From Eubacteriales bacterium (GTDB taxonomy: Bacteria; Bacillota; Clostridia; Oscillospirales; Oscillospiraceae): DNA of 64,000 nt. Below, piece after piece: positions 7,593 to 25,144 of this stretch. The position numbers were made by a program, and so were the translations under genes. The DNA lies in NCBI GenBank assembly GCA_030533415.1, contig JAUNJE010000009.1, positions 9,268 to 73,267 of the forward strand, given 5' to 3'. Positions within the stretch are counted from its first letter, which is position 1. The number at the start of each line of letters is the position of its first letter. The notes beneath the pieces are model-generated. The model was not told where the DNA came from, searched no databases, and saw nothing but the letters and a program-made list of their open reading frames with translations.

Positions 7593-7743
7593 AGAAGCCT
7601 CCTGAGTGATAAGGAAATTTCCTGTGATAAATGTGCGTTACCCCATATTATAGCAGTATTTGCCGAAAATGACAACTGTTTATTGGCAAAGGGAAGGTAA
7701 ATTATTGCATATTGGTAAGAGCGCTTTCCCGGTTTATATTTAT

Positions 7744-7796
7744 GTTGACAAGTCAACAAGCCCGTGGTATAATACGGCAAAAGTTGAAAGCTCAAC
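7744..7796 (+). promoter_or_regulatory. Sigma-A promoter of marR-degV with two palindromic operators
   Basis: TTGACA (7745-7750), 17 bp, TATAAT (7768-7773) with extended TG; GTTGA-N4-TCAAC at 7744-7757 and 7783-7796. Confidence 0.75.
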
Positions 7797-7815
7797 ATCT
7801 TTGGAGGTGAATACC

Positions 7816-8277
7816 TTGCTCAGCAAATACGAACTGTTTTCCTCGTCGATTTCCTGCGTATATCATGACATTCAGAAGATCGAGCGGACGGAGATGGCAA
7901 AATACGGTCTGAAAGGACCCCATGCCCAGTGCCTGCTGGCCATGAGCCGCTATCCCCAGGGCATTACGGCGGCCCGGCTGTGTGAAGTCTGCGAAAAGGA
8001 CAAGGCGGCCATTTCCCGTACCCTATCGGAATTGGAGCAGATGGATATGATCCGCCGCACCGGGCAGAACGGCACCCATTACCGGGCAAGCCTGACGCTG
8101 ACGGAGCGGGGCAGGGCCGCTGCGGAGACGGTCAGCGAAAAGGCCCGTCTGGCTGTGGAGCAGGCGGGACAGGGCCTGGAGGATGGCCAGCGGGAGGTTT
8201 TCTACCAGGTGCTCGCCCAGATCGCGGAGAATTTGCATGCCATCTGTAAGGATGGCATCAAAGAGAAGAAAATATAA
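7816..8277 (+). CDS. MarR-family transcriptional regulator
   Basis: wHTH pattern (DKAAISRTLSELE...LTERG); TTG start after GGAGGTG RBS. Confidence 0.85.
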   Translation: MLSKYELFSSSISCVYHDIQKIERTEMAKYGLKGPHAQCLLAMSRYPQGITAARLCEVCEKDKAAISRTLSELEQMDMIRRTGQNGTHYRASLTLTERGRAAAETVSEKARLAVEQAGQGLEDGQREVFYQVLAQIAENLHAICKDGIKEKKI

Positions 8278-11164: not shown

Positions 11165-11231
11165 GAGGAAAAAGAAAAGACAGCCCATTGGGCTGCCTTC
11201 GCTGCATATAAAATTCCCGGTTTTACACGGA

Positions 11232-11374
11232 TATTCCGTTAAAAAGTTTCATTCGCCAGAATGGAACGTTTTAACAGGAAGATCATAATGAGACGGGTTA
11301 TCGTGATTTCCTATCTTAAAAATCACGATAACGACAACGCTGTCAGGCGGTGCCTTCTTTATAAAAAACAGTAT
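11232..11374 (+). repeat. Dispersed intergenic repeat family A, composite copy with internal hairpin element
   Basis: Core (~11270-11362) matches the reverse complement of ~56410-56510; flanks match 34601-34656; internal perfect 13-bp stem GTTATCGTGATTT/AAATCACGATAAC. Confidence 0.75.
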
Positions 11375-11773: not shown

Positions 11774-12793
11774 TCATGCTTTTGACTGGGCTGTTTTCTT
11801 TGGATGGTTTTCATAATACCAGTTCAGGAATTCCCCGAAAATCCGTTCCTCTGCTTCTTTTCTCGCCTTCGCGGCGTCCTCGATTTTGGAATAGGTCCCC
11901 AGATTGTACAGCTTTCCCTTGAAGGTGATCTGGGCCTTCCATTTTCCACGGTAGGCCATTACCCCCGTGTAGCCGCTGGTGTTGTCTTTTCTCAGGCCCT
12001 TCCGTTCCAGCATTTCCACACAGGTTCCGTCGATATAACGCATGTAACTTACGGGACTTTCGTGCTCCTTGGGCAGGCAGCCGCAGCTTTTGGTGTTCCC
12101 CTGCACAAGACTGTTGTAGGAGACCTCAGTCTCCCCTCCGCAGTCACACCGGCACTTCCAGACCACACTGCCGCCCATGCGCCCTTCGGTGGGCTCCAGC
12201 GCAACCAGCCGCCCAAAACGCTGCCCGGCGATATCCCCGGCCCGCTTTTTCAGCATTTCGCTTCGGATGCAGCCACAGCTTTTGGTGCCGCCCTGCAGCA
12301 ATGCGTTGGCGGATACCTCCGTCAATTGCCCGCAGTCACAGCGGCACAGCCAGGCGTAGCTGGACCCCAGCTTTTTGTCCAGCCGCCGCAGGGCGGTGAG
12401 CCTGCCGAAGCGCTGGTTGGTCAGGTCCTTGATTTTATGCTCCGAGCGCAGGCAGCCGCAGCTTTCGATGACGCCGTTGGATATTTTGTAGCCCTCGGTC
12501 AGAAACTCCCGCCCGCAGTCACAGCGGCATTTCCAGAGGACCACGCCCCGGCGTTTTTCCTCCGTGGGCGCCAGGGCCACCACCTTCCCGGAACGCAGTC
12601 CGGTGATGTCCTTTTTCCGGCCTTCGCCCCGGGCGCAGCCGCAGGAGGTGAAAAACTTTGTCAGCAGCAAAGTATCCGCCAGGGTGACCGTATTGCCGCA
12701 GTCGCAGCGGCACAGGAGCCTGCCATCCTCCGTCTGTTCCAGCACCGTCAGCCTGCCAAAGCGCTGCCCCGTCAGGCTGGATGTTACCGTCAT
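11774..12793 (-). CDS. Cys-rich repeat plus C-terminal AP2-domain putative DNA-binding protein, copy 1
   Basis: Four ~62-aa repeats (DxxGQRFGRL..W.CRCDCG..SCGC) then NTSGYTGV..GKWKAQITFKGKLYNLGTY..EDAAKARKEAE; GGAGG RBS. Confidence 0.85.
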   Translation of the reverse strand: MTVTSSLTGQRFGRLTVLEQTEDGRLLCRCDCGNTVTLADTLLLTKFFTSCGCARGEGRKKDITGLRSGKVVALAPTEEKRRGVVLWKCRCDCGREFLTEGYKISNGVIESCGCLRSEHKIKDLTNQRFGRLTALRRLDKKLGSSYAWLCRCDCGQLTEVSANALLQGGTKSCGCIRSEMLKKRAGDIAGQRFGRLVALEPTEGRMGGSVVWKCRCDCGGETEVSYNSLVQGNTKSCGCLPKEHESPVSYMRYIDGTCVEMLERKGLRKDNTSGYTGVMAYRGKWKAQITFKGKLYNLGTYSKIEDAAKARKEAEERIFGEFLNWYYENHPKKTAQSKA

Positions 12794-13853
12794 GATTTCC
12801 CTCCTTCCGGCTATGGAAAGGGCGGCAGGGGATGGCTCCCGCTGCCGCCTTTTTTAGGGGTTACTTACTGCTTATCTGGTTTTCTTTTTCTTCACGGTGA
12901 GGATCAGCACCACGCCCAGAACCACCGCGCAGGCAACCAGCACGCCGATCCACAGGCCGATGTTGCTGGTGTCTCCGGTTTCGGGAATCAGGGAGATCTT
13001 GTTGGAGACGGTCACTTTCACGGTATCACTGGGCGTACCGGGAACGGGATCACCGCCAGCCTCGGTGATGACTACAGTATTCTTGATCACCGTTCCATTC
13101 TTCACACCGGACTTGACCGTGGCCTTGATGGTCAGTTTGGCGGTTTTGCCATTTTTCAGCTCGGAAATCGTCCACAGGCCGTCCTTGACCGCATAATTTC
13201 CATCGCCGCTGGCGCTGACAAAGGTCAGATTTGCATCCAGCTTTTCGGAAACGACGATATCTTCCAGGTCCTCGCCAGTCCTGTTGGTGACCTTGATGGT
13301 GTAAGTGATGGTCTTACCGGGACGCACTGTCGTGCGGTTGGCCGACTTATCGATGGTCAGTTTGCCGTAGTCCGGCGTCGGGTCAGGAGTAACAGACTCA
13401 TCAGGTTTGAATGACCAAACGCCCTCCAGAAGCATATCCTGCTGGATGTTCTTCAGTTCGGTGACCTTAGTGCCATTGTATGTCCAGCCCTCGAAGGTGA
13501 AGGTACCATCCTTACCATTATATTTACCCTTCCGGCTCTCGGGAACACCTTCCACGGTGTAGTCGCCACCCGCCGGGACAGTTGTGCCATCAGGTGCAGT
13601 ATATCCATCGGGAATCGTACCTGTAACTTGATAGGTCACATTGTATTTTTTCGCTGCAACGGTGTATTCTACAGTGGGCTTTTCGAAAGACTCGGGAACA
13701 CCATCACTTCCGTTAGAATCCTTAGGATACAGTATCGCACTTGTATTCGTATACAAGCCTTCATACCGCTTGGCTCCATCGGCATCATACTTGCCATATG
13801 TGCCTGCTTCGGTCTTGGGATTCATCAGCTTCACGGTGTAGGTCAACTGAACC
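11811..13853. repeat. Outer inverted repeat, left arm (~2043 bp; partner 21258-23300)
   Basis: Reverse complement of 21258-23300; covers the surface-protein 3' end, intergenic hairpin and AP2 gene; scattered mismatches mainly at the distal end. Confidence 0.95.
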
Positions 13854-16800
13854 GGGGCAAAGTTGGTAATCGGCTCATTGATGTACCATACGAAGTGCTC
13901 TTCTCCCTTACCGTTGCCCTTTACATAGGTTACGGTGTAGGCATAGCCTTCGCTCACCTTCTTGAAACCATACTCATTTTCACCAAGTTTGACTGCCTTG
14001 TAAGTTGCGTCGCCTATCTTCAATTCCATACTGTCGGCGTCATTTACAAAGTCAAAGTCATAATCACCCTCAACGTAGCCAATGAAATCCTCTACACGGG
14101 AACCTTTGTCTACCAAATAGAGAATGTCATTTTTGATGGTTTCAAAGCTGTACGTACTGCCACCAGCCAGGAACTCCATAAAGGAGGGACCCCATTCGTA
14201 TTGACCACCGCTGCCCGTATCAGCCTTGACAGCGTAGCAGTGATAGCCTTCCTGTGCGATAGACTGATAAGCCAAATAGGTTAAGTAAAGGGCTTTGTCG
14301 ATGGAGTTTGCATAATCGGACTGCTTTTCCACAGGCGTTGCATTGGTGACTGTGCCGCCATAAGGATACTCATACAGTGTTCCCTGGGCCGCAACCTGCT
14401 TGCTGACCGCAACCAGATAATCTTTCCAGCTCTCAGGCGCATCGTTGCTCTTATATTTGGAATTCCAGTTATCAGGACCTGCCCAATTCAGAACTGTATC
14501 TGCCTTAAAAGTCCAAGCGGTTACAGTTGGCACCGCATTGTACATATAAGTAATACCGTCACTGACAAAGATCAGATACTTGCGGCTGGCGGACACGGAT
14601 GTGTCAGCATCCAGCATAGCCTTGCCCGCAAGCAGTCCAGCGTGGGTATTCGTACCACTGGAAATCTCCTGCTTAATTGCTGCTTCGATAGCACTGTATT
14701 GCGTTGCAAGATCCATAAAGTTTGTGACATGCGCTTCGTTATTGAAAATCACAACGCCTACGTTGACTTTAGCGCTGGTATTTTGGATTTGCGTTTGCAG
14801 GTCCTTAAGCATCTGGAGTGCCTGGTTTTCCAAAGCCGCACTGGTGGATTTATCCAGCACAAACACGACATCGGAAACCAATTGCTGCTCTGCGGAAGGC
14901 AGAGACAGAGTTACCTTGGACTCAAAATTCTCATCCAGATTGGTAGCGGTCTTGGATTTGGAAACCTTCCAATCGGGGGTAACAACCGGCAGGTCAGGAA
15001 CGTCAACATTCAAGGCATGGGCAGCCTTCAAAGCCAATTTCCCGGTGAATGCTTTGCCGTAATCAGTATACTCCACGGTATAGGGTTTACCGCTATGGGC
15101 ATCCCAACGGAAGATGATTGGAATTCCGTCCTTATCTGTGGCATATCCGTCATAGTACCAACCGTCAATGGCATCGGTGCAATCGGGAGCGCCATCTAAG
15201 GCCCAATTAGAGCCAACTTTGCCGAAGGTGATAGTACCGACGTTGTAGATGTCGTCGCCAGCCTTATCGGCATGGTTATTATACAGAGAAATACTCTCGG
15301 AAAGCACCGCCTCCCCTTTGTTGTAAATGCCACCGCCGTAACTGTCGGTGCTATTATTCATAACTACGACATTTGCACCGGGGTCGACCTGTAACTTATA
15401 CGCGTTATAAATTCCGCCATCTTTATTCCGAAGGATTTCAACATTGGCGCCTTTTTCGATGGTCACATCGCCATACCAGTAGTTGCTGCCGGAATAAACC
15501 CATAGACCGCTTTTGGCATTATCATTCAGTTTGACGGCCGCGCCTGCCGCAATGGTACCCTTTCCGCCAACAGTGATTCCATTTCCCGTGTTTCCGCATG
15601 CTTCGACTTTAGAAGTGCCGTCAACTTCAAGCTCTTTGACAAAGATTCCCCAAGAAGATCCCTTGTTATTATTTGCAATCACTGCGGAACCATTGGTAAC
15701 GGTCAACTTGCCATAGTAGCATCCAAGGCCTCCACCATATGTCGCGGCACCGTTCCCAGTTAGACTCAGCGTCGAACTACCAGTAACGGTGAGATTAATC
15801 GGGTTAATGGTCATTCCATGCCAGCCGCAATTACTAATATTTACAGCCGAACTGCCACTAATTACAATCTCGCGATTAGGTTTACCGTCGTACTCCGAGT
15901 TGTCTGCGTAAATGCCACTGGCTTGCGCTCCATTGAATCCAGTGATATTCACAACAGAGCCACCGGTAATGTACAGATTACTTTCTTGGTAGAGATAAAT
16001 TCCACTTATCGCTTTATTGCTTGCCAAGTTCAGAACAGCATTATTCAGCGTCAAATTGGAGTTACTAATCAGATTGGCTGTACCTCCACTCGCCCCTGGG
16101 TTGTTTTCGACTTGCTGCATATCGAGTTCGCAGTTCTGGAATGTAAGCTTGCTTTTCGACGCATAGATACCCAACGCACCAAATGTGATCTTGTTTTTCC
16201 CACCATCAATGGTAATGGCCTTATCTTTGACAGTAAGTCCATTTACGTCACAGTCGGCCAGCAGTTCAATTGTATCACCATCTGATGCATTCTTTATGGC
16301 TTCGTCCAAGGTTTCGTATTCTGTTTCACCAATTTTGGCAACATATGTTGTTTCCAACGTCTGCAAGCCGCCAGTTAAGAAATCCATAGCCTTCTTCATT
16401 GTAGCTATTGCGGCTTGTACGTCCTCCCGGGCAAGTTCCTCTTCACTCAGCGCACCATACGCTTCTTGTGCCGCGCCAATTTGTTCGTTCAGTACGGGAC
16501 CGGTTTCCTCGTTGATTTCTTCCGGAAGCACAATAGCTGCAACGGCGTCTAAAAATGCCTTAACTGTGTCAGAAACTTCTTCCGGTTCACTTGCTTCTGT
16601 GTCCTTCTCAGCAACATATTTAGGACAGTCCTCTGTATGGGTTTCAGCTTCGCAATCGTCGTCCCCTGTGCATTCCTTCACAGTGACAAGTTTAGGGCAC
16701 CCCTCAACATGGGTCTCAGCTTCACAATTGTTGTCCTTGGTGCATTCCTTCACAGTGACAAGTTTAGGGCATCCCTCAACATGGGCTTCAGCTTCGCAAT

Positions 16801-16993
16801 TGTCATCCTTTATGCATCCCTCGGCAGCAACATATTTCGGACAGTCTGTAAAATGTGTGTCAGCCTCGCAATCAGCATTCTTTGTACACGTCAAGTTGTC
16901 CTCCGCCGATGCGGTTACCGGGCAAACGGAGAGCATCAGGACAGCCGCCAGCACCAGGGCCAAAAAGCGTTTTCCTTTCGTGTTCTTTCGCAT
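12872..16993 (-). CDS. Sortase-anchored vWA/beta-helix-like/DUF11-like surface protein, variant A
   Basis: Signal peptide MRKNTKGKRFLALVLAAVLMLSVCPVTASA; 24-aa Cys/His repeats; GG.IY repeat region; vWA MIDAS-like DVVFVLDKSTS...LIFVSDG; LTIDKSANRTTVRPGKTITYTIKVTN; IPETG + TM + KKKKTR. Alternative starts 17005/17017. Confidence 0.88.
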   Translation of the reverse strand: MRKNTKGKRFLALVLAAVLMLSVCPVTASAEDNLTCTKNADCEADTHFTDCPKYVAAEGCIKDDNCEAEAHVEGCPKLVTVKECTKDNNCEAETHVEGCPKLVTVKECTGDDDCEAETHTEDCPKYVAEKDTEASEPEEVSDTVKAFLDAVAAIVLPEEINEETGPVLNEQIGAAQEAYGALSEEELAREDVQAAIATMKKAMDFLTGGLQTLETTYVAKIGETEYETLDEAIKNASDGDTIELLADCDVNGLTVKDKAITIDGGKNKITFGALGIYASKSKLTFQNCELDMQQVENNPGASGGTANLISNSNLTLNNAVLNLASNKAISGIYLYQESNLYITGGSVVNITGFNGAQASGIYADNSEYDGKPNREIVISGSSAVNISNCGWHGMTINPINLTVTGSSTLSLTGNGAATYGGGLGCYYGKLTVTNGSAVIANNNKGSSWGIFVKELEVDGTSKVEACGNTGNGITVGGKGTIAAGAAVKLNDNAKSGLWVYSGSNYWYGDVTIEKGANVEILRNKDGGIYNAYKLQVDPGANVVVMNNSTDSYGGGIYNKGEAVLSESISLYNNHADKAGDDIYNVGTITFGKVGSNWALDGAPDCTDAIDGWYYDGYATDKDGIPIIFRWDAHSGKPYTVEYTDYGKAFTGKLALKAAHALNVDVPDLPVVTPDWKVSKSKTATNLDENFESKVTLSLPSAEQQLVSDVVFVLDKSTSAALENQALQMLKDLQTQIQNTSAKVNVGVVIFNNEAHVTNFMDLATQYSAIEAAIKQEISSGTNTHAGLLAGKAMLDADTSVSASRKYLIFVSDGITYMYNAVPTVTAWTFKADTVLNWAGPDNWNSKYKSNDAPESWKDYLVAVSKQVAAQGTLYEYPYGGTVTNATPVEKQSDYANSIDKALYLTYLAYQSIAQEGYHCYAVKADTGSGGQYEWGPSFMEFLAGGSTYSFETIKNDILYLVDKGSRVEDFIGYVEGDYDFDFVNDADSMELKIGDATYKAVKLGENEYGFKKVSEGYAYTVTYVKGNGKGEEHFVWYINEPITNFAPVQLTYTVKLMNPKTEAGTYGKYDADGAKRYEGLYTNTSAILYPKDSNGSDGVPESFEKPTVEYTVAAKKYNVTYQVTGTIPDGYTAPDGTTVPAGGDYTVEGVPESRKGKYNGKDGTFTFEGWTYNGTKVTELKNIQQDMLLEGVWSFKPDESVTPDPTPDYGKLTIDKSANRTTVRPGKTITYTIKVTNRTGEDLEDIVVSEKLDANLTFVSASGDGNYAVKDGLWTISELKNGKTAKLTIKATVKSGVKNGTVIKNTVVITEAGGDPVPGTPSDTVKVTVSNKISLIPETGDTSNIGLWIGVLVACAVVLGVVLILTVKKKKTR
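15156..15262. repeat. Internal 107-bp homology block, left (partner 19825-19931)
   Basis: Encodes AGDDIYNVGTITFGKVGSNWALDGAPDCTDAIDGWY in both paralogs; 2 synonymous mismatches by eye, flanked by divergent DNA. Confidence 0.9.
16613..16890 (-). repeat. Intragenic 72-bp tandem repeats (four Cys/His-rich 24-aa units)
   Basis: CTKNADCEADTHFTDCPKYV / CIKDDNCEAEAHVEGCPKLV / CTKDNNCEAETHVEGCPKLV / CTGDDDCEAETHTEDCPKYV. Confidence 0.85.
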
Positions 16994-17119
16994 CTTGTTT
17001 TCCATCCTTCCTTTCAATTCGTTCCATAGATAAATTTTCGGAGCAAATTTTCAGTCGGATAGGATATATTCCGCCATCCCATTCGTGACTTTGCCACATA
17101 ATTCATATTATGTAGTAAA
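16899..17119. repeat. Inner inverted repeat, left arm (221 bp; partner 17683-17903)
   Basis: Reverse complement of 17683-17903 with 2 mismatches; covers 5' leader, RBS and signal-peptide codons. Confidence 0.95.
17091..17118 (-). other. dif-like 28-bp candidate recombination site, left
   Basis: Minus strand TTACTACATAA-TATGAA-TTATGTGGCAA (11-6-11 dyad) at the inner edge of the repeat. Confidence 0.6.
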
Positions 17120-17224
17120 AATGAAAATTCGAACTCCATTTTAGAGCCAGTAAGAACGGCATAACCTGCCTTCTGCTGCTGTCTGTAGACAAGACGTTAC
17201 ATAGCCAGCCCTAAGTTTGGTTTC

Positions 17225-17253
17225 ATTATAGTACTAAAAAATTTTTTTGTCAA
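17225..17253 (-). promoter_or_regulatory. Sigma-A promoter directed at surface protein variant A
   Basis: Minus strand TTGACA (17253-17248), 17 bp, TATAAT (17230-17225), perfect consensus; no equivalent seen facing variant B. Confidence 0.85.
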
Positions 17254-17384
17254 TGGAAAACAGGGGATTTGGGCATGAAAAAATAAGCCTTTCCAGCCGC
17301 CAATTTTGGAAAGGCTTTGCCGTTATGTCATTTTTTGCCGAATTCTTGCCAATTTTCCCCAGGGGGATGGATCGCAGCGCACCA

Positions 17385-17666
17385 AAGCCTCCCTTGTGCA
17401 AAGGGAGGTGGCACGGCGTGAGCCGTGACGGAGGGATTGTGCGGTAACATCTCACGGTTTTGCCTAGCTTCCGGCAAATTCGCACTCCCTGCCGCAACAA
17501 TCCCTCAGTCAAAAATCAGAGATTTTTGACAGCTCCCTTTGCACAAGGGAGCCTTGGGCGCTCCCGCGCCAGTGATTCGCGGGAAAATTGGCTCAGAAAA
17601 TGATTGGATGCTTATCGATTTTGCTTGGCAAGCCTGATTTACAGCGCACAAGGGAGCCCTTGGCGC
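17385..17666. repeat. REP/REPIN-like palindromic cluster inside the spacer
   Basis: CCTCCCTTGTGCAAAGGGAGG and GCTCCCTTTGCACAAGGGAGC hairpins in inverted arrangement; GAGGGATTGT/ACAATCCCTC; GTCAAAAATC-AGA-GATTTTTGAC; partial third copy ~17646-17666. Confidence 0.7.
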
Positions 17667-17682
17667 GTCCAGGCTAGAACGG

Positions 17683-17903
17683 TTTACCACATAATATGAA
17701 TTATGTGGCAAAGTCACGAATGGGATGGCGGAATATATCCTGTCCGACTGAAAATTTGCTCCGAAAATTTATCTATGGAACGAATTGAAAGGAAGGATGG
17801 AAAACAAGATGCGAAAGAACACGAAAGGAAAACGCTTTTTGGCCCTGGTGCTGGCGGCTGTCCTGATGCTCTCCGTTTGCCCGGTAACCGCATCGGCGGA
17901 GGA
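17683..17903. repeat. Inner inverted repeat, right arm
   Basis: Reverse complement of 16899-17119. Confidence 0.95.
17684..17711 (+). other. dif-like 28-bp candidate recombination site, right
   Basis: TTACCACATAA-TATGAA-TTATGTGGCAA; inverted relative to 17091-17118 with one difference in the spacer-facing arm. Confidence 0.6.
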
Positions 17904-20900
17904 TACCGACTGTCAGCATAAGAATGTAAATCCACTTGAAGCAGTTGAGCCCACTTGCACTGAGGATGGATTAACTGCGGGAAAACAATGCCTTGATTGC
18001 AATGCTGTAACCGAAGCGCAGCAGACGATTCCGGCCACTGGCCACAGCTATGACAAAGGGAAAGTGACCCAAGAGCCAACTGCGGAAGAAGCAGGTGTAA
18101 AAACCTATACATGCAGTGTGTGTGGTGAAACATATACGGAGGGGATTCCTGCTACGGGCCCGGATCACCACTGGGATGAGGGAAAAGTGACTACCCAGGT
18201 GACGTGCACGGCAGAAGGTGTAATGACATACACCTGCACTGACGAAGGCTGCGAAGAAACCAAAACGGAGACGATTCCAGCCACTGGCCACAGCTGGGAC
18301 GAGGGGAAAGTGACCCAAGAGCCAACTGCGGAAAAAGCAGGTGTAAAAACCTATACATGCAGTGTATGTGGTGAAACATATACGGAGGAGATTCCTGCTA
18401 CGGGCACGGATCACCACTGGGATGAGGGAAAAGTAACTACCCCGGCGACGTGCACGGCAGAAGGTGTAATGACATACACCTGCACTGACGAGGGCTGCGA
18501 AGAAACCAAAACGGACACGATTCCAGCCACTGGACACAGCTATGGCGAGCCAACGTGGGATCGGGACGAAAAGGAGGAAAATTTCATTGCAACCTTTGTT
18601 TGCGCTACATGTGGGGCTTCGGAGACGGTGACTGCCACAATTGACGAAGATGGCAAAGCGGTTGTGACCTTTGGCGATGAAACATATTCTTATGAGTTTG
18701 AGGCCGCTCCTGTCGTTGATGCAGAACAGTTTGTTGCCCAAATTGGTAGCGAAAAATATGAGACTTTAGGTGAAGCTTTTCAGAAGGCCTGCACGATATC
18801 TCAAGAAACTAACACTACGGTGACAGTGGAGGTCTTGACAGACTGCGAGGAAAAGGCTAACAACATCCAAATAAAGAATGGTGGAAATGTAATTGTTAAA
18901 GCTGCCGACGGTGCTAACGTTACGGTCACTCTTACGGGAACAGGAGCATACCAAGCGACAACAGTAACAAACAGCTCGCTCACATTCCAGAATCTAACTA
19001 TCATTGATACATCCCTGATCGCACTGTATGAAAATGCTATCTTAACCTTTGATAATGTCAATTTGTCCATGGATGGCACAAATGTTCAGGTCGTCAGTAA
19101 TGGATATTATTCTTGCGCGATTGCACTTGAGAATCCGAAAACTACTTTGGTCTTCAAAAATTCTAAAGTTCACATTGAGAATTATCCCGGAACAGGCAGC
19201 GGCATCAGATGGGATTCTGAGCTGGATGGATACTCTATTAAATTTCTAAACGGTACGAACTTTACGGTCACAAAATGCTATTCCGGATTCACCGGTACAA
19301 ACAATATTACCATTGAGGATAGTACTGTTAATGTATATGAAAACAGAGGAAATGGGTCTAATGGCTCCAATTTTGAAATAAAAAACTCCACTGTAAATTT
19401 CAATAACAATGGTTCTCATGGCCTCTCTGCTGGTAAATTGCTTATTGATAATTCGACTGTTACTGCGAATGGCAATGGCGGAAATGGTATCCATACAAAT
19501 AGTACATTGACAATTCAAAACAAATCGACGGTCACTGTTGCGGAAAATAAATGTTCTATCAGCAGCAAATGGACCATTCCCGGAGCTGTCCATATCGGAG
19601 CAGGTGATTCTGTAATTAAAGATAGTACCGTCATGATTCAGAATAACAGTGGCTCAGGTATTTATCAGAAGTCTGCTAGTGGTTCCCTGACGATTGAGGA
19701 CAGCGCTAATGTAACCATTGTGAAAAACACCGCTGAAAAACTGGGCCTTGGCGGCGGTATTTATGTCAACGGTACTGTAACACTTGCCAACAATGTTGTT
19801 CTCTATAACAACCATGCGGGTACTGCTGGCGACGACATCTACAACGTCGGTACTATCACCTTTGGCAAAGTTGGCTCTAATTGGGCCTTAGATGGCGCTC
19901 CCGATTGCACCGATGCCATTGACGGCTGGTATGTCGATGCTGAAAATAACCGCTGGGTAGCCCATAAAACTCCCGTCCATGTAGAGGAGTTTACCAGCGG
20001 CACGGTTACATCTTCTTCTGAAAATCCCCTGGCGCTGAAGGCTGCCCACAAGCTGATACCGCTTCAGCCTGGTGATTCCTCCCACAGTTGGGAGCACTCC
20101 AAGTCCAAAACGGCGACCGAACTGGACGAGAATTATGCGTCCAAGGTAACTCTGTCTCTCCCCAGCGGTCAAACGCCGGTGGAATATGACGTGATGTTTG
20201 TGTTGGATAAGTCCAAGAGTACTGAAAAAGAGCAGATTGCCGATGAAGTAGAGAAGCTTTTGGACAAGATTCAAGGTTCCAAGGCCAAGGTGAATATCGG
20301 TGTCGTTACCTTCAACAACAATGCAAATACCTACCTGCCTTTGACGGAGCTAACCGCCAGCAGTCTGCCTAAAATTACAGAAGCAATCAATACCACTATC
20401 AGTTCCGGCACGAATATCCATGCCGGTTTGCAGAAGGGCATTGAGCTGCTTGAGGCTGGAAGTGCAGAGGAAAAATATCTTATCCTTGTCACTGACGGCA
20501 TCACCTATCTCTATAACGATGATGCGGGCAACGGCCCCTTGGGCATCAGCTATGAAGGCACAGCCGAGTCGCTGCATTATTCCTATAAATATGGCACCGG
20601 CAAAGCGCCGACAGAGTGGGAAAACCCGATGGATTGGGGCACATATTTAGGCGTCATCGATGGGCTGGTTAAGGAAGATGGAACCCGATTCGAGGGATCA
20701 TGGAATTCCACTGGCGCTACTGTAAACTCAGCGGAAAGACTGAAAAGCCCGTCTTACTCAGACGGTAACAGCATTGCGGATCATGCTATGTCTGCCGATA
20801 AAGCCCTGTTACTGACCTATCAGGAATATGAAAAGGCAATTCAGAAATTCGGCAAAGACCACGTCTATGCAGTTACGAAAGAGTTCACAACTGCCGAATT

Positions 20901-22239
20901 CCTGTGGGGAAACAGCTTCGTGGACTATCTGTCCAGCATTTCTGCGAATGAGCAGGACATTGGAACCATTATCAATCGTGACATCTACTATTTGCTCGAC
21001 GCCGGTTCCAGCGTTAAGGACTACATTGGCTTTGTTGAGAATGATTACAACTTCGACTTTGTAAACGATGTCAGCGCCCTTTCGCTGAAGGTGGGCGAGG
21101 TAACCTACGAGGCAGAAGAAATCGAAACCAATAAATATGGCTTTGTTCCGAATGAGAAGGGCGGCTACGATTACGTTGTTACTTACAACGAGGGCAACCT
21201 TGAGGACACAGAGCATTTTGTCTGGGAAATCAATGTTCCTGTCACCATTGATAAAGTGGTTCAGCTGACCTACACCGTGAAGCTGATGAATCCCAAGACC
21301 GAAGCAGGCACATATGGCAAGTATGATGCCGATGGAGCCAAGCGGTATGAAGGCTTGTATACGAATACAAGTGCGATACTGTATCCTAAGGATTCTAACG
21401 GAAGTGATGGTGTTCCCGAGTCTTTCGAAAAGCCCACTGTAGAATACACCGTTGCAGCGAAAAAATACAATGTGACCTATCAAGTTACAGGTACGATTCC
21501 CGATGGATATACTGCACCTGATGGCACAACTGTCCCGGCGGGTGGCGACTACACCGTGGAAGGTGTTCCCGAGAGCCGGAAGGGTAAATATAATGGTAAG
21601 GATGGTACCTTCACCTTCGAGGGCTGGACATACAATGGCACTAAGGTCACCGAACTGAAGAACATCCAGCAGGATATGCTTCTGGAGGGCGTTTGGTCAT
21701 TCAAACCTGATGAGTCTGTTACTCCTGACCCGACGCCGGACTACGGCAAACTGACCATCGATAAGTCGGCCAACCGCACGACAGTGCGTCCCGGTAAGAC
21801 CATCACTTACACCATCAAGGTCACCAACAGGACTGGCGAGGACCTGGAAGATATCGTCGTTTCCGAAAAGCTGGATGCAAATCTGACCTTTGTCAGCGCC
21901 AGCGGCGATGGAAATTATGCGGTCAAGGACGGCCTGTGGACGATTTCCGAGCTGAAAAATGGCAAAACCGCCAAACTGACCATCAAGGCCACGGTCAAGT
22001 CCGGTGTGAAGAATGGAACGGTGATCAAGAATACTGTAGTCATCACCGAGGCTGGCGGTGATCCCGTTCCCGGTACGCCCAGTGATACCGTGAAAGTGAC
22101 CGTCTCCAACAAGATCTCCCTGATTCCCGAAACCGGAGACACCAGCAACATCGGCCTGTGGATCGGCGTGCTGGTTGCCTGCGCGGTGGTTCTGGGCGTG
22201 GTGCTGATCCTCACCGTGAAGAAAAAGAAAACCAGATAA
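17809..22239 (+). CDS. Sortase-anchored vWA/beta-helix-like/DUF11-like surface protein, variant B
   Basis: Same signal peptide and same last ~325 aa as variant A; different Cys/His repeats (H.WDEGKVT..TCT.EG..TYTC); vWA DVMFVLDKSKS...LILVTDG; IPETG anchor. Alternative starts 17797/17785. Confidence 0.88.
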   Translation: MRKNTKGKRFLALVLAAVLMLSVCPVTASAEDTDCQHKNVNPLEAVEPTCTEDGLTAGKQCLDCNAVTEAQQTIPATGHSYDKGKVTQEPTAEEAGVKTYTCSVCGETYTEGIPATGPDHHWDEGKVTTQVTCTAEGVMTYTCTDEGCEETKTETIPATGHSWDEGKVTQEPTAEKAGVKTYTCSVCGETYTEEIPATGTDHHWDEGKVTTPATCTAEGVMTYTCTDEGCEETKTDTIPATGHSYGEPTWDRDEKEENFIATFVCATCGASETVTATIDEDGKAVVTFGDETYSYEFEAAPVVDAEQFVAQIGSEKYETLGEAFQKACTISQETNTTVTVEVLTDCEEKANNIQIKNGGNVIVKAADGANVTVTLTGTGAYQATTVTNSSLTFQNLTIIDTSLIALYENAILTFDNVNLSMDGTNVQVVSNGYYSCAIALENPKTTLVFKNSKVHIENYPGTGSGIRWDSELDGYSIKFLNGTNFTVTKCYSGFTGTNNITIEDSTVNVYENRGNGSNGSNFEIKNSTVNFNNNGSHGLSAGKLLIDNSTVTANGNGGNGIHTNSTLTIQNKSTVTVAENKCSISSKWTIPGAVHIGAGDSVIKDSTVMIQNNSGSGIYQKSASGSLTIEDSANVTIVKNTAEKLGLGGGIYVNGTVTLANNVVLYNNHAGTAGDDIYNVGTITFGKVGSNWALDGAPDCTDAIDGWYVDAENNRWVAHKTPVHVEEFTSGTVTSSSENPLALKAAHKLIPLQPGDSSHSWEHSKSKTATELDENYASKVTLSLPSGQTPVEYDVMFVLDKSKSTEKEQIADEVEKLLDKIQGSKAKVNIGVVTFNNNANTYLPLTELTASSLPKITEAINTTISSGTNIHAGLQKGIELLEAGSAEEKYLILVTDGITYLYNDDAGNGPLGISYEGTAESLHYSYKYGTGKAPTEWENPMDWGTYLGVIDGLVKEDGTRFEGSWNSTGATVNSAERLKSPSYSDGNSIADHAMSADKALLLTYQEYEKAIQKFGKDHVYAVTKEFTTAEFLWGNSFVDYLSSISANEQDIGTIINRDIYYLLDAGSSVKDYIGFVENDYNFDFVNDVSALSLKVGEVTYEAEEIETNKYGFVPNEKGGYDYVVTYNEGNLEDTEHFVWEINVPVTIDKVVQLTYTVKLMNPKTEAGTYGKYDADGAKRYEGLYTNTSAILYPKDSNGSDGVPESFEKPTVEYTVAAKKYNVTYQVTGTIPDGYTAPDGTTVPAGGDYTVEGVPESRKGKYNGKDGTFTFEGWTYNGTKVTELKNIQQDMLLEGVWSFKPDESVTPDPTPDYGKLTIDKSANRTTVRPGKTITYTIKVTNRTGEDLEDIVVSEKLDANLTFVSASGDGNYAVKDGLWTISELKNGKTAKLTIKATVKSGVKNGTVIKNTVVITEAGGDPVPGTPSDTVKVTVSNKISLIPETGDTSNIGLWIGVLVACAVVLGVVLILTVKKKKTR
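18025..18545 (+). repeat. Intragenic tandem duplication with 246-bp (82-aa) period
   Basis: ACGATTCC(G/A)GCCACTGG(C/A)CACAGC recurs at 18025, 18271 and 18517 with near-identical intervening DNA. Confidence 0.85.
19825..19931. repeat. Internal 107-bp homology block, right
   Basis: Reverse complement of 15156-15262. Confidence 0.9.
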
Positions 22240-23300
22240 GCAGTAAGTAACCCCTAAAAAAGGCGGCAGCGGGAGCCATCCCCTGCCGCCCTTTCCATAG
22301 CCGGAAGGAGGGAAATCATGACGGTAACATCCAGCCTGACGGGGCAGCGCTTTGGCAGGCTGACGGTGCTGGAACAGACGGAGGATGGCAGGCTCCTGTG
22401 CCGCTGCGACTGCGGCAATACGGTCACCCTGGCGGATACTTTGCTGCTGACAAAGTTTTTCACCTCCTGCGGCTGCGCCCGGGGCGAAGGCCGGAAAAAG
22501 GACATCACCGGACTGCGTTCCGGGAAGGTGGTGGCCCTGGCGCCCACGGAGGAAAAACGCCGGGGCGTGGTCCTCTGGAAATGCCGCTGTGACTGCGGGC
22601 GGGAGTTTCTGACCGAGGGCTACAAAATATCCAACGGCGTCATCGAAAGCTGCGGCTGCCTGCGCTCGGAGCATAAAATCAAGGACCTGACCAACCAGCG
22701 CTTCGGCAGGCTCACCGCCCTGCGGCGGCTGGACAAAAAGCTGGGGTCCAGCTACGCCTGGCTGTGCCGCTGTGACTGCGGGCAATTGACGGAGGTATCC
22801 GCCAACGCATTGCTGCAGGGCGGCACCAAAAGCTGTGGCTGCATCCGGAGCGAAATGCTGAAAAAGCGGGCCGGAGACATCGCCGGGCAGCGTTTTGGGC
22901 GGCTGGTTGCGCTGGAGCCCACCGAAGGACGCATGGGCGGCAGTGTGGTCTGGAAGTGCCGGTGTGACTGCGGCGGGGAGACAGAGGTCTCCTACAACAG
23001 TCTGGTGCAGGGGAATACCAAAAGCTGCGGCTGTCTGCCCAAGGAGCACGAAAGTCCCGTAAGTTACATGCGTTATATCGACGGCACCTGTGTGGAAATG
23101 CTGGAACGGAAGGGCCTGAGAAAAGACAACACCAGCGGCTACACGGGGGTAATGGCCTACCGTGGAAAATGGAAGGCCCAGATCACCTTCAAGGGAAAGC
23201 TGTACAATCTGGGGACCTATTCCAAAATCGAGGACGCCGCAAAGGCGAGAAAAGAAGCAGAAGAACGGATTTTCGGAGAATTCCTGGACTGGTATTATGA
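21258..23300. repeat. Outer inverted repeat, right arm
   Basis: Reverse complement of 11811-13853. Confidence 0.95.
22256..22294. terminator. GC-rich hairpin between surface gene and AP2 gene (mirror copy at 12817-12855)
   Basis: AAAAAA-GGCGGCAG(C)GGGA...TCCCCTGCCGCC-CTTT; weak U-tail in the sense direction. Confidence 0.55.
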
Positions 23301-23391
23301 GCATTTTCCCCCAAAAGGGAAAACGGGACTCACCGTCAAAGCCAATGACGCCCAATATACAGGCCCGGCATGCAGAAAAACACGCGAATAA
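22318..23391 (+). CDS. Cys-rich repeat plus AP2-domain protein, copy 2
   Basis: Identical to copy 1 up to EERIFGEFL, then a different and longer C-terminal tail. Confidence 0.85.
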   Translation: MTVTSSLTGQRFGRLTVLEQTEDGRLLCRCDCGNTVTLADTLLLTKFFTSCGCARGEGRKKDITGLRSGKVVALAPTEEKRRGVVLWKCRCDCGREFLTEGYKISNGVIESCGCLRSEHKIKDLTNQRFGRLTALRRLDKKLGSSYAWLCRCDCGQLTEVSANALLQGGTKSCGCIRSEMLKKRAGDIAGQRFGRLVALEPTEGRMGGSVVWKCRCDCGGETEVSYNSLVQGNTKSCGCLPKEHESPVSYMRYIDGTCVEMLERKGLRKDNTSGYTGVMAYRGKWKAQITFKGKLYNLGTYSKIEDAAKARKEAEERIFGEFLDWYYEHFPPKGKTGLTVKANDAQYTGPACRKTRE

Positions 23392-23393
23392 GG

Positions 23394-23427
23394 AAACCGC
23401 CGCAGGAAAATCCCCTGCGGCGGTTTT
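23394..23427. terminator. Bidirectional intrinsic terminator
   Basis: AAACCGCCGCAGG-loop-CCTGCGGCGGTTTT between convergent genes. Confidence 0.75.
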
Positions 23428-23437
23428 GATTGAAAAA

Positions 23438-25144
23438 TTACAGTTTGGTATCCCAGCGGCCGCACCAGACATTCTCTTCGGGAATGCCCGTAAATGCACT
23501 GCCGCCGCAGAGCTTGTCAATAACGGCGTCAATGACCTCGGGGGAATCCATATAGCAGTTGACATAGGTACGGCTCATGGTCAGGTCGATCAGATAGTTG
23601 GGCAGGTACAGGCTGATGAAAGCCGTAGGAACCTGGCTGGCGTACCAGGGTTGCTGGGTGGGCATGGTCCACTTGACCCGCATGGTGTTGTACTGCGCGA
23701 AGCCAACCTGGTCGATAAAGACCAGCACCGCATCGGTGTTTGCGCGGAAGGCCTCCATCTTTCCCTTGGCGGGAATGGCGTCTCCGTCCTCAACGGCAAA
23801 GCCCCGCTCTTCCAGCTTTTGGATGATCTGTGCTTTGGTTTTTGCCCCGGAATCATCCTTTATCAGCTTGCCGGCAATGACCCGGCCATCTCCCTCCAGG
23901 AAGTAAACGCGGATACGCTTCTGCTTGGCGGGGTCCAGAGGCAGCATCTTCTGAGTGTCTTTGACCAGCGTCACAAATTTGTCCGCACATTCTCTGGCAA
24001 TGGCGCTGTGCTCCGGGCAGCCCACCACGGAGATACCCTCCTTGGGCGGCATCAGGGTGCCGGCGGCTTGCTTCCGGTGCAGTCCGATGCTGGCCTTGAC
24101 GCCCAGAATGCGCATCAGGGCGTCGGTCATGCGTTCCTCGGTGATGATGCCGTTTTTGTAGCCGTCCATCATGTAGCCGAAATCCTCTTCCATGTCATTG
24201 AAGAACAGGTACATGTCACAGCCGGCGGCAATGGCCTGGGGAACCTGCTGGCTGCGGGGCATTGCGCCAAACATACCGATCATGTGGGAGGCGTCGGTGA
24301 CTACCAGGCCGTTGAAGCCCAGTTTTTCCTTCAGCAGCCCGGTGATCAGCTCGGGACAAAGGGTGGCGGGCAGAATTTCGTGGTCATCCAGCTGACGGCC
24401 GGCCAGTCTGCGCTGCCATGCGGGCTGGGCGATGTGTCCGGCCATAATGGTTTTGACACCGGCGTCGATCAGCTCGGCATATACTTTGCCAAAGGTGTCC
24501 ATCCAGGTGTCGCAGTCCAGATCGTTGATGCCCATCATCAGGTGCTGGTCGTTTTCCTCGGTGCCGTCACCGGGGAAGTGCTTGATGGTGGTGGCCATTT
24601 CGCATTCTTCCGTGCCCTTCAGGAAGGCCTTGGCATATGCCACCGTGCGCTCTGCATCCGCACAGAAGGAGCGGGTCTGCACGATGGTGTTCCGCCAGTT
24701 TTGCAGCAGGTCAACAATGGGGGCAAAATTCCAGTTGGAGCCGATGGCCATAGCTTCCATGCCGCCGACCTTTGCCGCTTTGTAGGCCACTTCGGGGTCC
24801 CGGGAGGCGGCGGTTGCCGCACCGCAGGCCACAGCGGTACCGCCGCCGACACCGCCGTTGCCGCCGGCCTCGCAATTGCTGGCAACCAGCAGGGGAATGC
24901 GGCTGTGCTGCTGGAAGGTGTTGACCATGTCCCACAGCTCAGAGGCGGATTTGTTGTGATAGCGCAGCGCTCCGGGATGATAGGTTTCGGCCACCTTCCG
25001 AATGCCCTCGGGGCTGAAATCGGTGACCATATTGACAAATAGCTGACCAACCTTTTCCTCGTCGGTCATACCGGCAATGGTGTCCATTACCCACTGGACA
25101 TCCTCGTCGGACAGATAGTAGGGTTTTGCTTTCAAATTGACCAT
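23438..25144 (-). CDS. Glycoside hydrolase family 3 (beta-hexosaminidase/beta-glucosidase-like)
   Basis: WNFAPIVDL, IKHFPGDG, IMAGHI, LGFNGLVVTDAS; start MVNLKAKPY after AGGAG; no signal peptide. Confidence 0.9.
   Translation of the reverse strand: MVNLKAKPYYLSDEDVQWVMDTIAGMTDEEKVGQLFVNMVTDFSPEGIRKVAETYHPGALRYHNKSASELWDMVNTFQQHSRIPLLVASNCEAGGNGGVGGGTAVACGAATAASRDPEVAYKAAKVGGMEAMAIGSNWNFAPIVDLLQNWRNTIVQTRSFCADAERTVAYAKAFLKGTEECEMATTIKHFPGDGTEENDQHLMMGINDLDCDTWMDTFGKVYAELIDAGVKTIMAGHIAQPAWQRRLAGRQLDDHEILPATLCPELITGLLKEKLGFNGLVVTDASHMIGMFGAMPRSQQVPQAIAAGCDMYLFFNDMEEDFGYMMDGYKNGIITEERMTDALMRILGVKASIGLHRKQAAGTLMPPKEGISVVGCPEHSAIARECADKFVTLVKDTQKMLPLDPAKQKRIRVYFLEGDGRVIAGKLIKDDSGAKTKAQIIQKLEERGFAVEDGDAIPAKGKMEAFRANTDAVLVFIDQVGFAQYNTMRVKWTMPTQQPWYASQVPTAFISLYLPNYLIDLTMSRTYVNCYMDSPEVIDAVIDKLCGGSAFTGIPEENVWCGRWDTKL

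Follow-up and report, generated by a model that had tools for sequence, protein, structure and literature searches.

A recombinase-less promoter cassette between two divergent surface-protein genes as a probable either/or phase-variation switch in an uncultured gut Clostridia genome

The window analysed here is a stretch of 64,000 nucleotides from a Eubacteriales bacterium (Clostridia, Oscillospiraceae; assembly GCA_030533415.1, contig JAUNJE010000009.1, positions 9,268 to 73,267). It contains a mirror-image locus which is probably a real either/or phase-variation switch, served by a recombinase in trans and insulated by one base from a second promoter cassette of the same genome. A tyrosine recombinase encoded elsewhere would flip a promoter-bearing segment of 587 bp, bounded by two matched sites, and its orientation would decide whether a cell makes surface protein A or B (Table 1).

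Table 1. Features of the mirror-image locus, with positions in the window
Feature	Position	Strand	Remarks
AP2-like gene, left copy	11774-12793	-	Cys-repeat protein, weak C-terminal AP2-like domain, HNH-family-associated
Outer inverted repeat, left arm	11811-13853		3' third of gene A and AP2-like gene
Surface protein A gene	12872-16993	-	1373 aa; faces promoter as assembled
Signal-peptide coding block with leader and RBS, left copy	16899-17089	-	Shared with right copy
Left recombination site	17090-17119	+	12-bp arm, core TTCATA (17102-17107), 12-bp arm
Predicted invertible segment	17108-17694		587 bp between cores; 98.7% identical to C67:32-653
Sigma-70 consensus promoter	17225-17253	-	12/12 match; points at gene A; no start site measured
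Dispersed hairpin repeat in cassette	17345-17650		60 loci on 36 contigs
Right recombination site	17683-17712	-	Inverted; same core TTCATA (17695-17700)
Signal-peptide coding block with leader and RBS, right copy	17713-17903	+	Shared with left copy
Surface protein B gene	17809-22239	+	1476 aa; promoterless as assembled
Outer inverted repeat, right arm	21258-23300		
AP2-like gene, right copy	22318-23391	+	

Two divergent paralogous genes for sortase-anchored vWA proteins had been proposed in a preliminary description of the locus, and this is borne out by the open reading frames, by Pfam VWA and DUF11 domains and a C-terminal IPETG sorting motif in both A and B, and by a score of 17.9 with the LPXTG model TIGR01167 (cut-off 15.9). 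Protein A is built up by a signal peptide, 24-aa Cys/His repeats, a predicted beta-rich region, vWA, DUF11 and the IPETG anchor. Protein B has the signal peptide of A, different Cys/His repeats, a divergent middle, vWA and a C-terminus identical to that of A. The middle regions are 26-51% identical per 100 aa over A residues 101-1000. A beta-helix in the middle of A is only a suggestion because the model, made from a single sequence, has a mean pLDDT of 46.7, Foldseek gave no match to it at E<=0.001 and a PDB sequence search gave no match. Both proteins appear adhesin-like and would be mutually exclusive in expression.

The near-identical 5' block of 221 bp reported for the two genes was found as an inner inverted repeat (16899-17119 and 17683-17903) with 2 mismatches between its arms (17060/17742 and 17114/17688), and it stops where the coding for the signal peptide stops. 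The common 3' block of about 2.04 kb was also recovered, as an outer inverted repeat with arms of 2043 bp that differ by 15 mismatches and are identical over 1582 bp. It includes most of a gene previously named AP2. The duplication of this gene stands, and 13 of the 14 differences between its left and right copies within the repeat are synonymous, but the AP2 label is tentative because the Pfam AP2 E-values (0.022 for the protein, 0.0013 for the domain) are both below the curated cut-off and the best PHROG matches are families of HNH endonucleases.

The cassette between the genes measures 593 bp from site to site. Both sites have an arm-core-arm structure and are inverted relative to each other with identical cores, and their arm motif matches that of sites in other genomes. 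The sigma-70 consensus is found on a single strand of the cassette and reads outward. Perfect matches of this kind number only 66 in the whole assembly of 2.72 Mb. Toward gene B, the best candidate reaches 9/12 with a 19-bp spacer, in agreement with the original observation of one perfect promoter facing the left gene only. When the segment is flipped in silico, the -10 box comes to lie 231 bp from the ATG of B, which is its present distance from the ATG of A. The cassette is about twice the usual length because the hairpin repeat sits inside it.

Sequence comparisons show that the window sites are arm-core-arm targets of a tyrosine-invertase family that is widespread in gut Clostridia. Among 106 distinct modules from other genomes, 104 have the same core at both sites, and 56 different cores occur, whereas 2000 shuffles of the cores produced 3.9 matches on average and never more than 10. 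The spacing between sites is mostly 200-305 bp, and promoters with at least 10/12 matches were found in 86 modules, 60 facing toward the recombinase and 26 away from it. Members of the family flip at such sites elsewhere, judging from a near-identical pair of loci that is inverted exactly at the sites: L133 has the same 253-bp segment as L166/L304 (1 difference) in the opposite orientation, with flanks of 97-98% identity that extend over 1.7 and 8 kb, and the break is inside the site. This favours the either/or switch in the window. The layout also has precedents because locus L302 (G425:C4) is two-way, L303 has its cassette 17 kb from its own recombinase, and L115 has no recombinase within the 16 kb examined. 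L302 resembles the window locus in its site motif, in the match of its cores and in having a single promoter and two divergent paralogues whose leader and signal peptide are identical, but differs in that its recombinase gene is inside a 1047-bp cassette, while here it is encoded elsewhere and a second cassette copy is present.

Screening the sequence just outside site pairs for long repeats gave only loci with tandem sites and missed L302, so the screen is uninformative on the absence of mirror layouts. A pattern scan of metagenomes yielded 3 loci, none from the window locus, and a viral scan yielded 27 stretches, mostly with single sites.

The spacer, originally proposed to invert at 17120-17682, can thus be assigned to a family of invertible promoters of the fimS-like kind, and its limits are refined to core-to-core, 17108-17694. 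The further proposal that flipping changes expression from A to B is consistent with the membership in a flipping family, the equal distance to the ATG after a flip and the precedent of L302, with the switching itself being a prediction.

It is very improbable that the spacer is instead a mobile remnant that does not switch, lying between chromosomal dif or Xer-integration sites. The family recombinase is distantly XerC/D-like, scoring below all curated cut-offs, and the arms of the sites resemble dif. However, the assembly has four sites in two inverted pairs, and across the family the sites adjoin their own recombinase with a promoter between them, and the cores vary between loci yet match within each. 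The expression "dif-like" used previously should therefore not be read as chromosomal dif, a candidate largely refuted by the many sites, the 56 free core types and the local recombinases. A search of the whole assembly with two dif consensus motifs gave no convincing chromosomal dif.

As assembled, the whole window has no recombinase, and none is present within 5 kb of the cassette. The same assembly has, on contig C67, a cassette adjoining an intact recombinase (697-1536) with PF00589, PF02899 and the complete catalytic residues R138-K162-H225-R228-H251-Y260, and this recombinase adjoins the same site arms as those in the window. The cores are TTCATA/TTCATA in the window and TTCACA/TTCACA at C67. 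The C67 recombinase would act in trans on the window cassette, and the one-base core difference would prevent recombination between the two cassettes. A second copy of the recombinase is found at the start of contig C5, where it is cut inside the gene.

The C5 copy speaks against the either/or switch because with it nothing is missing for two canonical modules: recombinase copies, cassettes and units of a surface gene plus an AP2-like gene each number exactly two in the assembly. For this reason the warning of a mis-assembly in the preliminary description still applies. An assembly chimera is accordingly the alternative in which rec1 (C67), a cassette and gene A (ON) and rec2 (C5), a cassette and gene B (OFF) were mis-joined via the 528-bp identical interior of the cassettes. 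We consider this unlikely, although it has several observations on its side. The order recombinase, cassette, surface gene and AP2-like gene is found in the relatives L039 and L257, C67 begins at a 55-bp vertex of the assembly graph, and the outer repeat is one of only three exact repeat pairs longer than 299 bp that have both copies inside contigs. The assembled pairing also implies a target-less recombinase-promoter-recombinase locus, and no such locus was found among the other loci examined.

The cores, on the other hand, favour the either/or switch because the four site junctions of the assembly are matched solely under the assembled pairing (A with B, recombinase with recombinase), in line with the almost invariable match within modules of the family. 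A chimera would leave both modules with mismatched cores (TTCACA and TTCATA), as found in only 2 of the 106 family modules. Inversion by a tyrosine recombinase between mismatched cores should homogenise them, and by this reasoning it is unexpected for the two modules to stand in opposite orientations with their cores still different. Each core is at most 55 bp from flank-specific bases, which makes graph simplification an unlikely source of the pattern. Where a genome has two modules, their cores are often different, as with TCCGCA and TTCGCA in G423, which also favours an either/or switch.

The assembly graph has k=55, with 65 of 160 contig ends overlapping by exactly 55 bp. Most repeats with both copies inside contigs do not exceed 299 bp, so read pairs probably give no direct support to the join across the 528 bp of the cassette or to that across the 1582 bp of the outer repeat. 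No reads showing an inversion of this locus were found, which speaks against the switch; X1, the sole listed run, is shallow and has no piece that spans the cassette. Contigs from this run, with a depth of about 2-5, include parts of gene B, the right AP2-like gene, GH3 and the recombinase, and the junction between the right AP2-like gene and the GH3 gene is among them (piece 23281-23566, 1 difference); gaps in the cover were not counted as evidence. Both flanks have a replication-strand signal of equal sign (z=8.1 and 4.6), which favours the either/or switch. The strand skew speaks against a pairing of rec2 with A and rec1 with B but fits the assembled pairing and the chimeric one (rec1 with A, rec2 with B) equally, and the test is soft, with the sign flipping in 3 of 23 controls of adjacent windows.

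Gene order in the genus is scrambled, and no empty site could be identified in 20 regions adjoining homologues of the left or right flank and 20 recombinase loci. A module, cit genes and copA are present within 15 kb in G246:C21, in a different relative orientation, and this region was hence not counted.

A mosaic allele of A (P0028), 67% identical and from another assembly, lacks a linker that is common to A and B in the present assembly. This suggests, as far as sequences can tell, a recent exchange between A and B, which would be easier between nearby inverted copies and so favours the either/or arrangement. The same mosaic structure, with A seemingly holding a linker of B type, could also point to a real mirror in which site-specific switching is rare or absent and RecA-type recombination acts in the 221-bp and 2-kb repeats as in C. 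fetus, or in which gene conversion draws on B as a silent donor. The recombinase is absent from the locus and the repeats reach far past the 30-bp sites, as such a reading would have it. It is nevertheless improbable, since neither site is disrupted, their cores match, the assembly encodes an intact cognate recombinase, and A and B are both intact with the same leader.

If the locus is the either/or switch that we favour, its layout may have arisen from two on/off modules, each with recombinase, promoter and gene, by one recombination between the modules, which would have left the second, target-less cassette between two recombinase genes. It is tentatively proposed that two duplicated modules were rewired in this way into a recombinase-free either/or adhesin switch and a target-less cassette, and that a one-base change in the core fixed the wiring.

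Systems in which one promoter serves alternative surface genes with conserved 5' ends by inversion include the sapA homologues of Campylobacter fetus and slpA/slpB of Lactobacillus acidophilus, where the inversions are of kilobase scale and driven by homology. The preliminary description drew this analogy, and it is apt for the layout as assembled, since C. fetus sap also has a single promoter between opposed homologues with conserved 5' ends. It is less apt for the mechanism: the segment here measures 0.6 kb, its sites are of defined arm-core-arm structure, a cognate tyrosine recombinase exists, A and B are substrates of sortase and not S-layers, and a site-specific tyrosine recombinase fits better than a homology-driven process. 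In eps2A/eps2B of Bifidobacterium breve UCC2003, one unit is expressed and the other is silent until the promoter is reoriented (PMC4155821). This locus likewise has one promoter between two opposed units and no recombinase identified at the locus, but it consists of polysaccharide operons, not paralogous anchored proteins with identical leaders, and belongs to another phylum. The vpma locus of Mycoplasma agalactiae shares a tyrosine recombinase (Xer1), a single promoter and alternative surface-protein genes, which are put behind the unique promoter via sites in the 5' UTR (PMC2268961). It differs in that six genes are shuffled and xer1 adjoins the locus, while here a small promoter cassette would flip between two genes. 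Action in trans is proposed with caution because Xer1 may prefer cis (PMC2268961).

The family itself appears to have been catalogued. Inverton group 139 of Jin 2025 comprises 33 invertons, 32 of them in Clostridia and nearly all adjoining a tyrosine recombinase, and one example has 25-bp repeats 231 bp apart; flipping was seen in reads in that study (PMC11892184). These dimensions fit the spacing of the present family, which is probably the same as group 139 / tyrosine invertase group 35, given that dimensions and host class agree. The window cassette differs from the group in its length, in the lack of an adjoining recombinase as assembled and in its two flanking genes, which have the same leader. 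A tyrosine recombinase within 5 kb of the inverton, taken as a mark of the group, is present at C67 and not at the window cassette, and would be present at both modules if these were mis-joined. A two-way layout is not described in the available part of the account (PMC11892184). The arrangement had not been recognised as a described system, but novelty in kind is not supported because the recombinase-site family appears catalogued and two-way invertible promoters are known from eps2, sap and vpma. New here is the recombinase-less, trans-driven layout of a two-way switch; literature searches gave nothing relevant on the site motif or on divergent surface genes with a single promoter.

Should the chimera be true after all, it would be a warning that assembly from short reads can produce mirror-image loci where inverton cassettes are near-identical. 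The many natural site variants, with 56 cores among 104 matched modules, may be mutually orthogonal and are of interest for recombinase tools. If the switch is real, an uncultured gut commensal has a heritable either/or choice of two adhesin-like coat proteins, which might help it to escape phage or host antibodies or to change niche. An either/or switch could then arise from on/off invertons and stay insulated from them via the free 6-bp core, and if the proposed rewiring is true, the locus would show, caught midway, how two phase-variation switches are made into one for antigenic variation.

The window locus holds divergent surface-protein genes, gene A on the left and gene B on the right, and the mirror-image pair of paralogues reported in the preliminary description is present as it was described. 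The 221-bp 5' block is an inverted repeat with 2 mismatches spanning a recombination site, the leader and the signal peptide, and the 3' block of about 2.04 kb is a 2043-bp inverted repeat with 15 mismatches that extends over the 3' ends of A and B and takes in an AP2-like gene. A and B have one and the same signal peptide and agree fully over about 330 C-terminal residues, with 26-51% identity per 100 residues over residues 101-1000 of A. No structural match was found for the middle region of A in a search with a modelled structure or in a sequence search of the PDB. P0028, a gene A allele from another assembly, is near-identical to A in the N-terminal repeats and vWA; its middle region is replaced and the linker is its own, suggesting mosaic exchange of a hypervariable domain. 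A third anchored protein is encoded on another contig of the same assembly.

Positions of features in the window (bare coordinates), on other contigs of the same assembly (C numbers) and in loci of other genomes
Feature	Position	Strand	Description
Gene A	12872-16993	minus	1373 aa; vWA, DUF11 and IPETG anchor
Tandem repeats, A N-terminus	16602-16872		72-bp units
Gene B	17809-22239	plus	1476 aa; vWA, DUF11 and IPETG anchor
Tandem repeats, B N-terminus	18023-18514		two 246-bp units
Segment flipped in silico	17108-17694		
Hairpin repeat	17345-17650		60 loci on 36 contigs
Dispersed element	11221-11367		about 145 bp; dozens of copies
Further sites of the window type	C67:32-61 and 624-653		core TTCACA
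Second promoter cassette (L016)	C67:1-1536		recombinase-type flank on both sides; no target gene as assembled
Cut-off start of second recombinase gene copy	C5:1-145		upstream region differs from the C67 copy
Third anchored protein	C14:8965-13077		DUF11 C-terminus in common (61%); no cassette
Third AP2-like gene	C47:96297-97307		93-94% identical; behind a sortase-like gene
TetR-like gene with two flanking palindromes	C38:100751-101457		
Two-way cassette of L302	L302 9511-10577 (G425:C4)		
Module of L040 with doubled sites	7609-7980		tandem, at both module ends, 40 bp apart; four possible pairings

The single promoter said to face only A was recovered, with one 12/12 consensus toward A and a best score of 9/12 toward B. 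Once the segment is flipped in silico, the -10 box lies 231 bp from the ATG of B, which is its present distance to the ATG of A. The sites called dif-like have a 12-6-12 structure (a 6-bp core between 12-bp arms), one starting each inner repeat, and form an inverted pair with the common core TTCATA. The layout is similar to that of sap in Campylobacter fetus. The two dispersed repeats in the window belong to different families. On C38, a gene that we take to be TetR-like lies between palindromes sharing a TTATGT half-site, which are more likely operators than recombination sites.

A scan of the source genome gave only two further sites of the window type, both on C67, where they enclose a full-length copy of the window cassette (the promoter segment between inverted sites) at 98.7% identity. 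This site pair is followed by a hairpin that resembles a terminator (T-run; z=-4.4) and then by a tyrosine recombinase gene (rec1; 279 aa, full catalytic set), whose 3' end comes first. A second, truncated copy (rec2) begins C5.

When as many as 2 mismatches are allowed, the site pattern is found in 15 of 400 same-genus genomes (0 for the reversed control); a shorter pattern, matched exactly, is found in 48 of 298 genomes (control 1), and recombinase homologues occur in 68 of the 298. Species-representative genomes contain at least 122 stretches with the pattern, mostly titled Clostridia, Oscillospiraceae or Lachnospiraceae. A survey of modules (recombinase plus site-flanked cassette) was anchored on the recombinase, with sites chosen by arm score only. 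Among 165 recombinase matches, 137 have a site pair, equal to 106 distinct modules; 25 have no distal site (19 of these had less than 400 bp of sequence left) and three no proximal site. In 104 of the 106 modules the two cores agree, with 56 core types (shuffles: mean 3.9, maximum 10), the significance of such family counts being overstated because kin are not independent. This covariation is what a recombining core would have to show. Where the promoter scores at least 10/12 (86 modules), it points toward the recombinase in 60 and away in 26. Direct evidence of flipping comes from L133 compared with L166 and L304, in which one segment (one difference) stands in opposite orientations between flanks that are 97-98% identical, with the break inside the site. 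The downstream genes mostly appear secreted, surface or polysaccharide-related, on an uncounted inspection by eye of their N-termini and best matches. AP2-like genes also follow surface operons in modules L039, L049 and L257, and L040 has doubled sites. L245 (G246:C21) combines a recombinase module, citC/citXG and copA within 15 kb; these gene types also flank the window locus, in a different relative orientation.

Inverton group 139 of Jin et al. 2025 comprises 33 invertons, 32 of them from Clostridia, and is tied to tyrosine invertase group 35; in one example, 25-bp repeats stand 231 bp from each other (PMC11892184). By dimensions and host class, the window sites and the recombinase probably belong to this family, although the adjacent recombinase usual in group 139 is missing from the window locus as assembled. 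The switch would work like promoter inversion at eps2A/eps2B in Bifidobacterium breve (PMC4155821) and like vpma/Xer1 in Mycoplasma agalactiae (PMC2268961). The initial view that the arrangement is not a described system is not supported for the family or its way of working; for the recombinase-less two-way form with a twin cassette, our literature search found no account.

The source assembly is a k=55 graph assembly, with 65 of 160 contig ends overlapping elsewhere by exactly 55 bp; C67 begins at such a vertex, and C5 inside rec2. Four arms (rec1, rec2, gene A and gene B) surround two cassettes, and the cassette interiors agree exactly over 528 bp. Among 118 exact repeats that lie within contigs in both copies, only three are longer than 299 bp (2816, 1582 and 1119 bp), so joins across the cassettes probably lack direct read-pair support. 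The mirror might be a mis-join of two canonical modules, in which each recombinase is paired with a surface gene rather than A with B; there are two copies of each part, and rec1 with A and rec2 with B fits the strand skew as well as the assembled pairing does; the skew argues against another pairing. Synteny in relatives is uninformative on pairing. The two AP2-like genes show 13 synonymous differences at their 3' ends, suggesting that the units are older paralogues with inner parts homogenised or collapsed, which fits an origin in two separate modules.

Read from the sequence, the cores discriminate between the two pairings: both leader-side sites have TTCATA and both recombinase-side sites TTCACA, every core lying at most one k-mer from flank-specific bases. 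As assembled, both loci are core-matched and one base apart from each other, as are two G423 modules. A mis-join would leave both modules with mismatched cores, as in 2 of 106, and in opposite orientations without the core homogenisation expected from inversion. L302 has a two-way cassette with matched cores and one promoter, which also contains the recombinase; the divergent paralogues on either side of it (1170 and 817 aa) have identical leaders, and a third paralogue comes next. In L303 the recombinase is 17 kb from the site pair, at the far end of a polysaccharide operon, and in L115 none is found within 16 kb. Given the matched cores, L302 and L303, we lean toward a real either/or switch and consider a mis-join rather unlikely, both by judgement and not computed. 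The mirror is a real feature of the sequence as assembled, and its reading as a switch carries the assembly caveat. Other assemblies contain both AP2-like end types, the mosaic A allele (called start inside the signal peptide) and four recombinase variants on contigs of 912-927 bp; these lengths and starts suggest that other strains have the duplicated parts as well, phase aside.

Sites, cores, promoter consensus, equal leaders and an intact recombinase are all present, and inversion is seen in relatives. For the favoured either/or switch, the C67 or C5 recombinase would bind the site arms in trans, and strand exchange across TTCATA would turn the promoter away from A and toward B; the differing C67 core would keep the two loci from exchanging with each other. 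With leader and signal peptide alike either way, one adhesin-like protein would replace the other on the cell wall.
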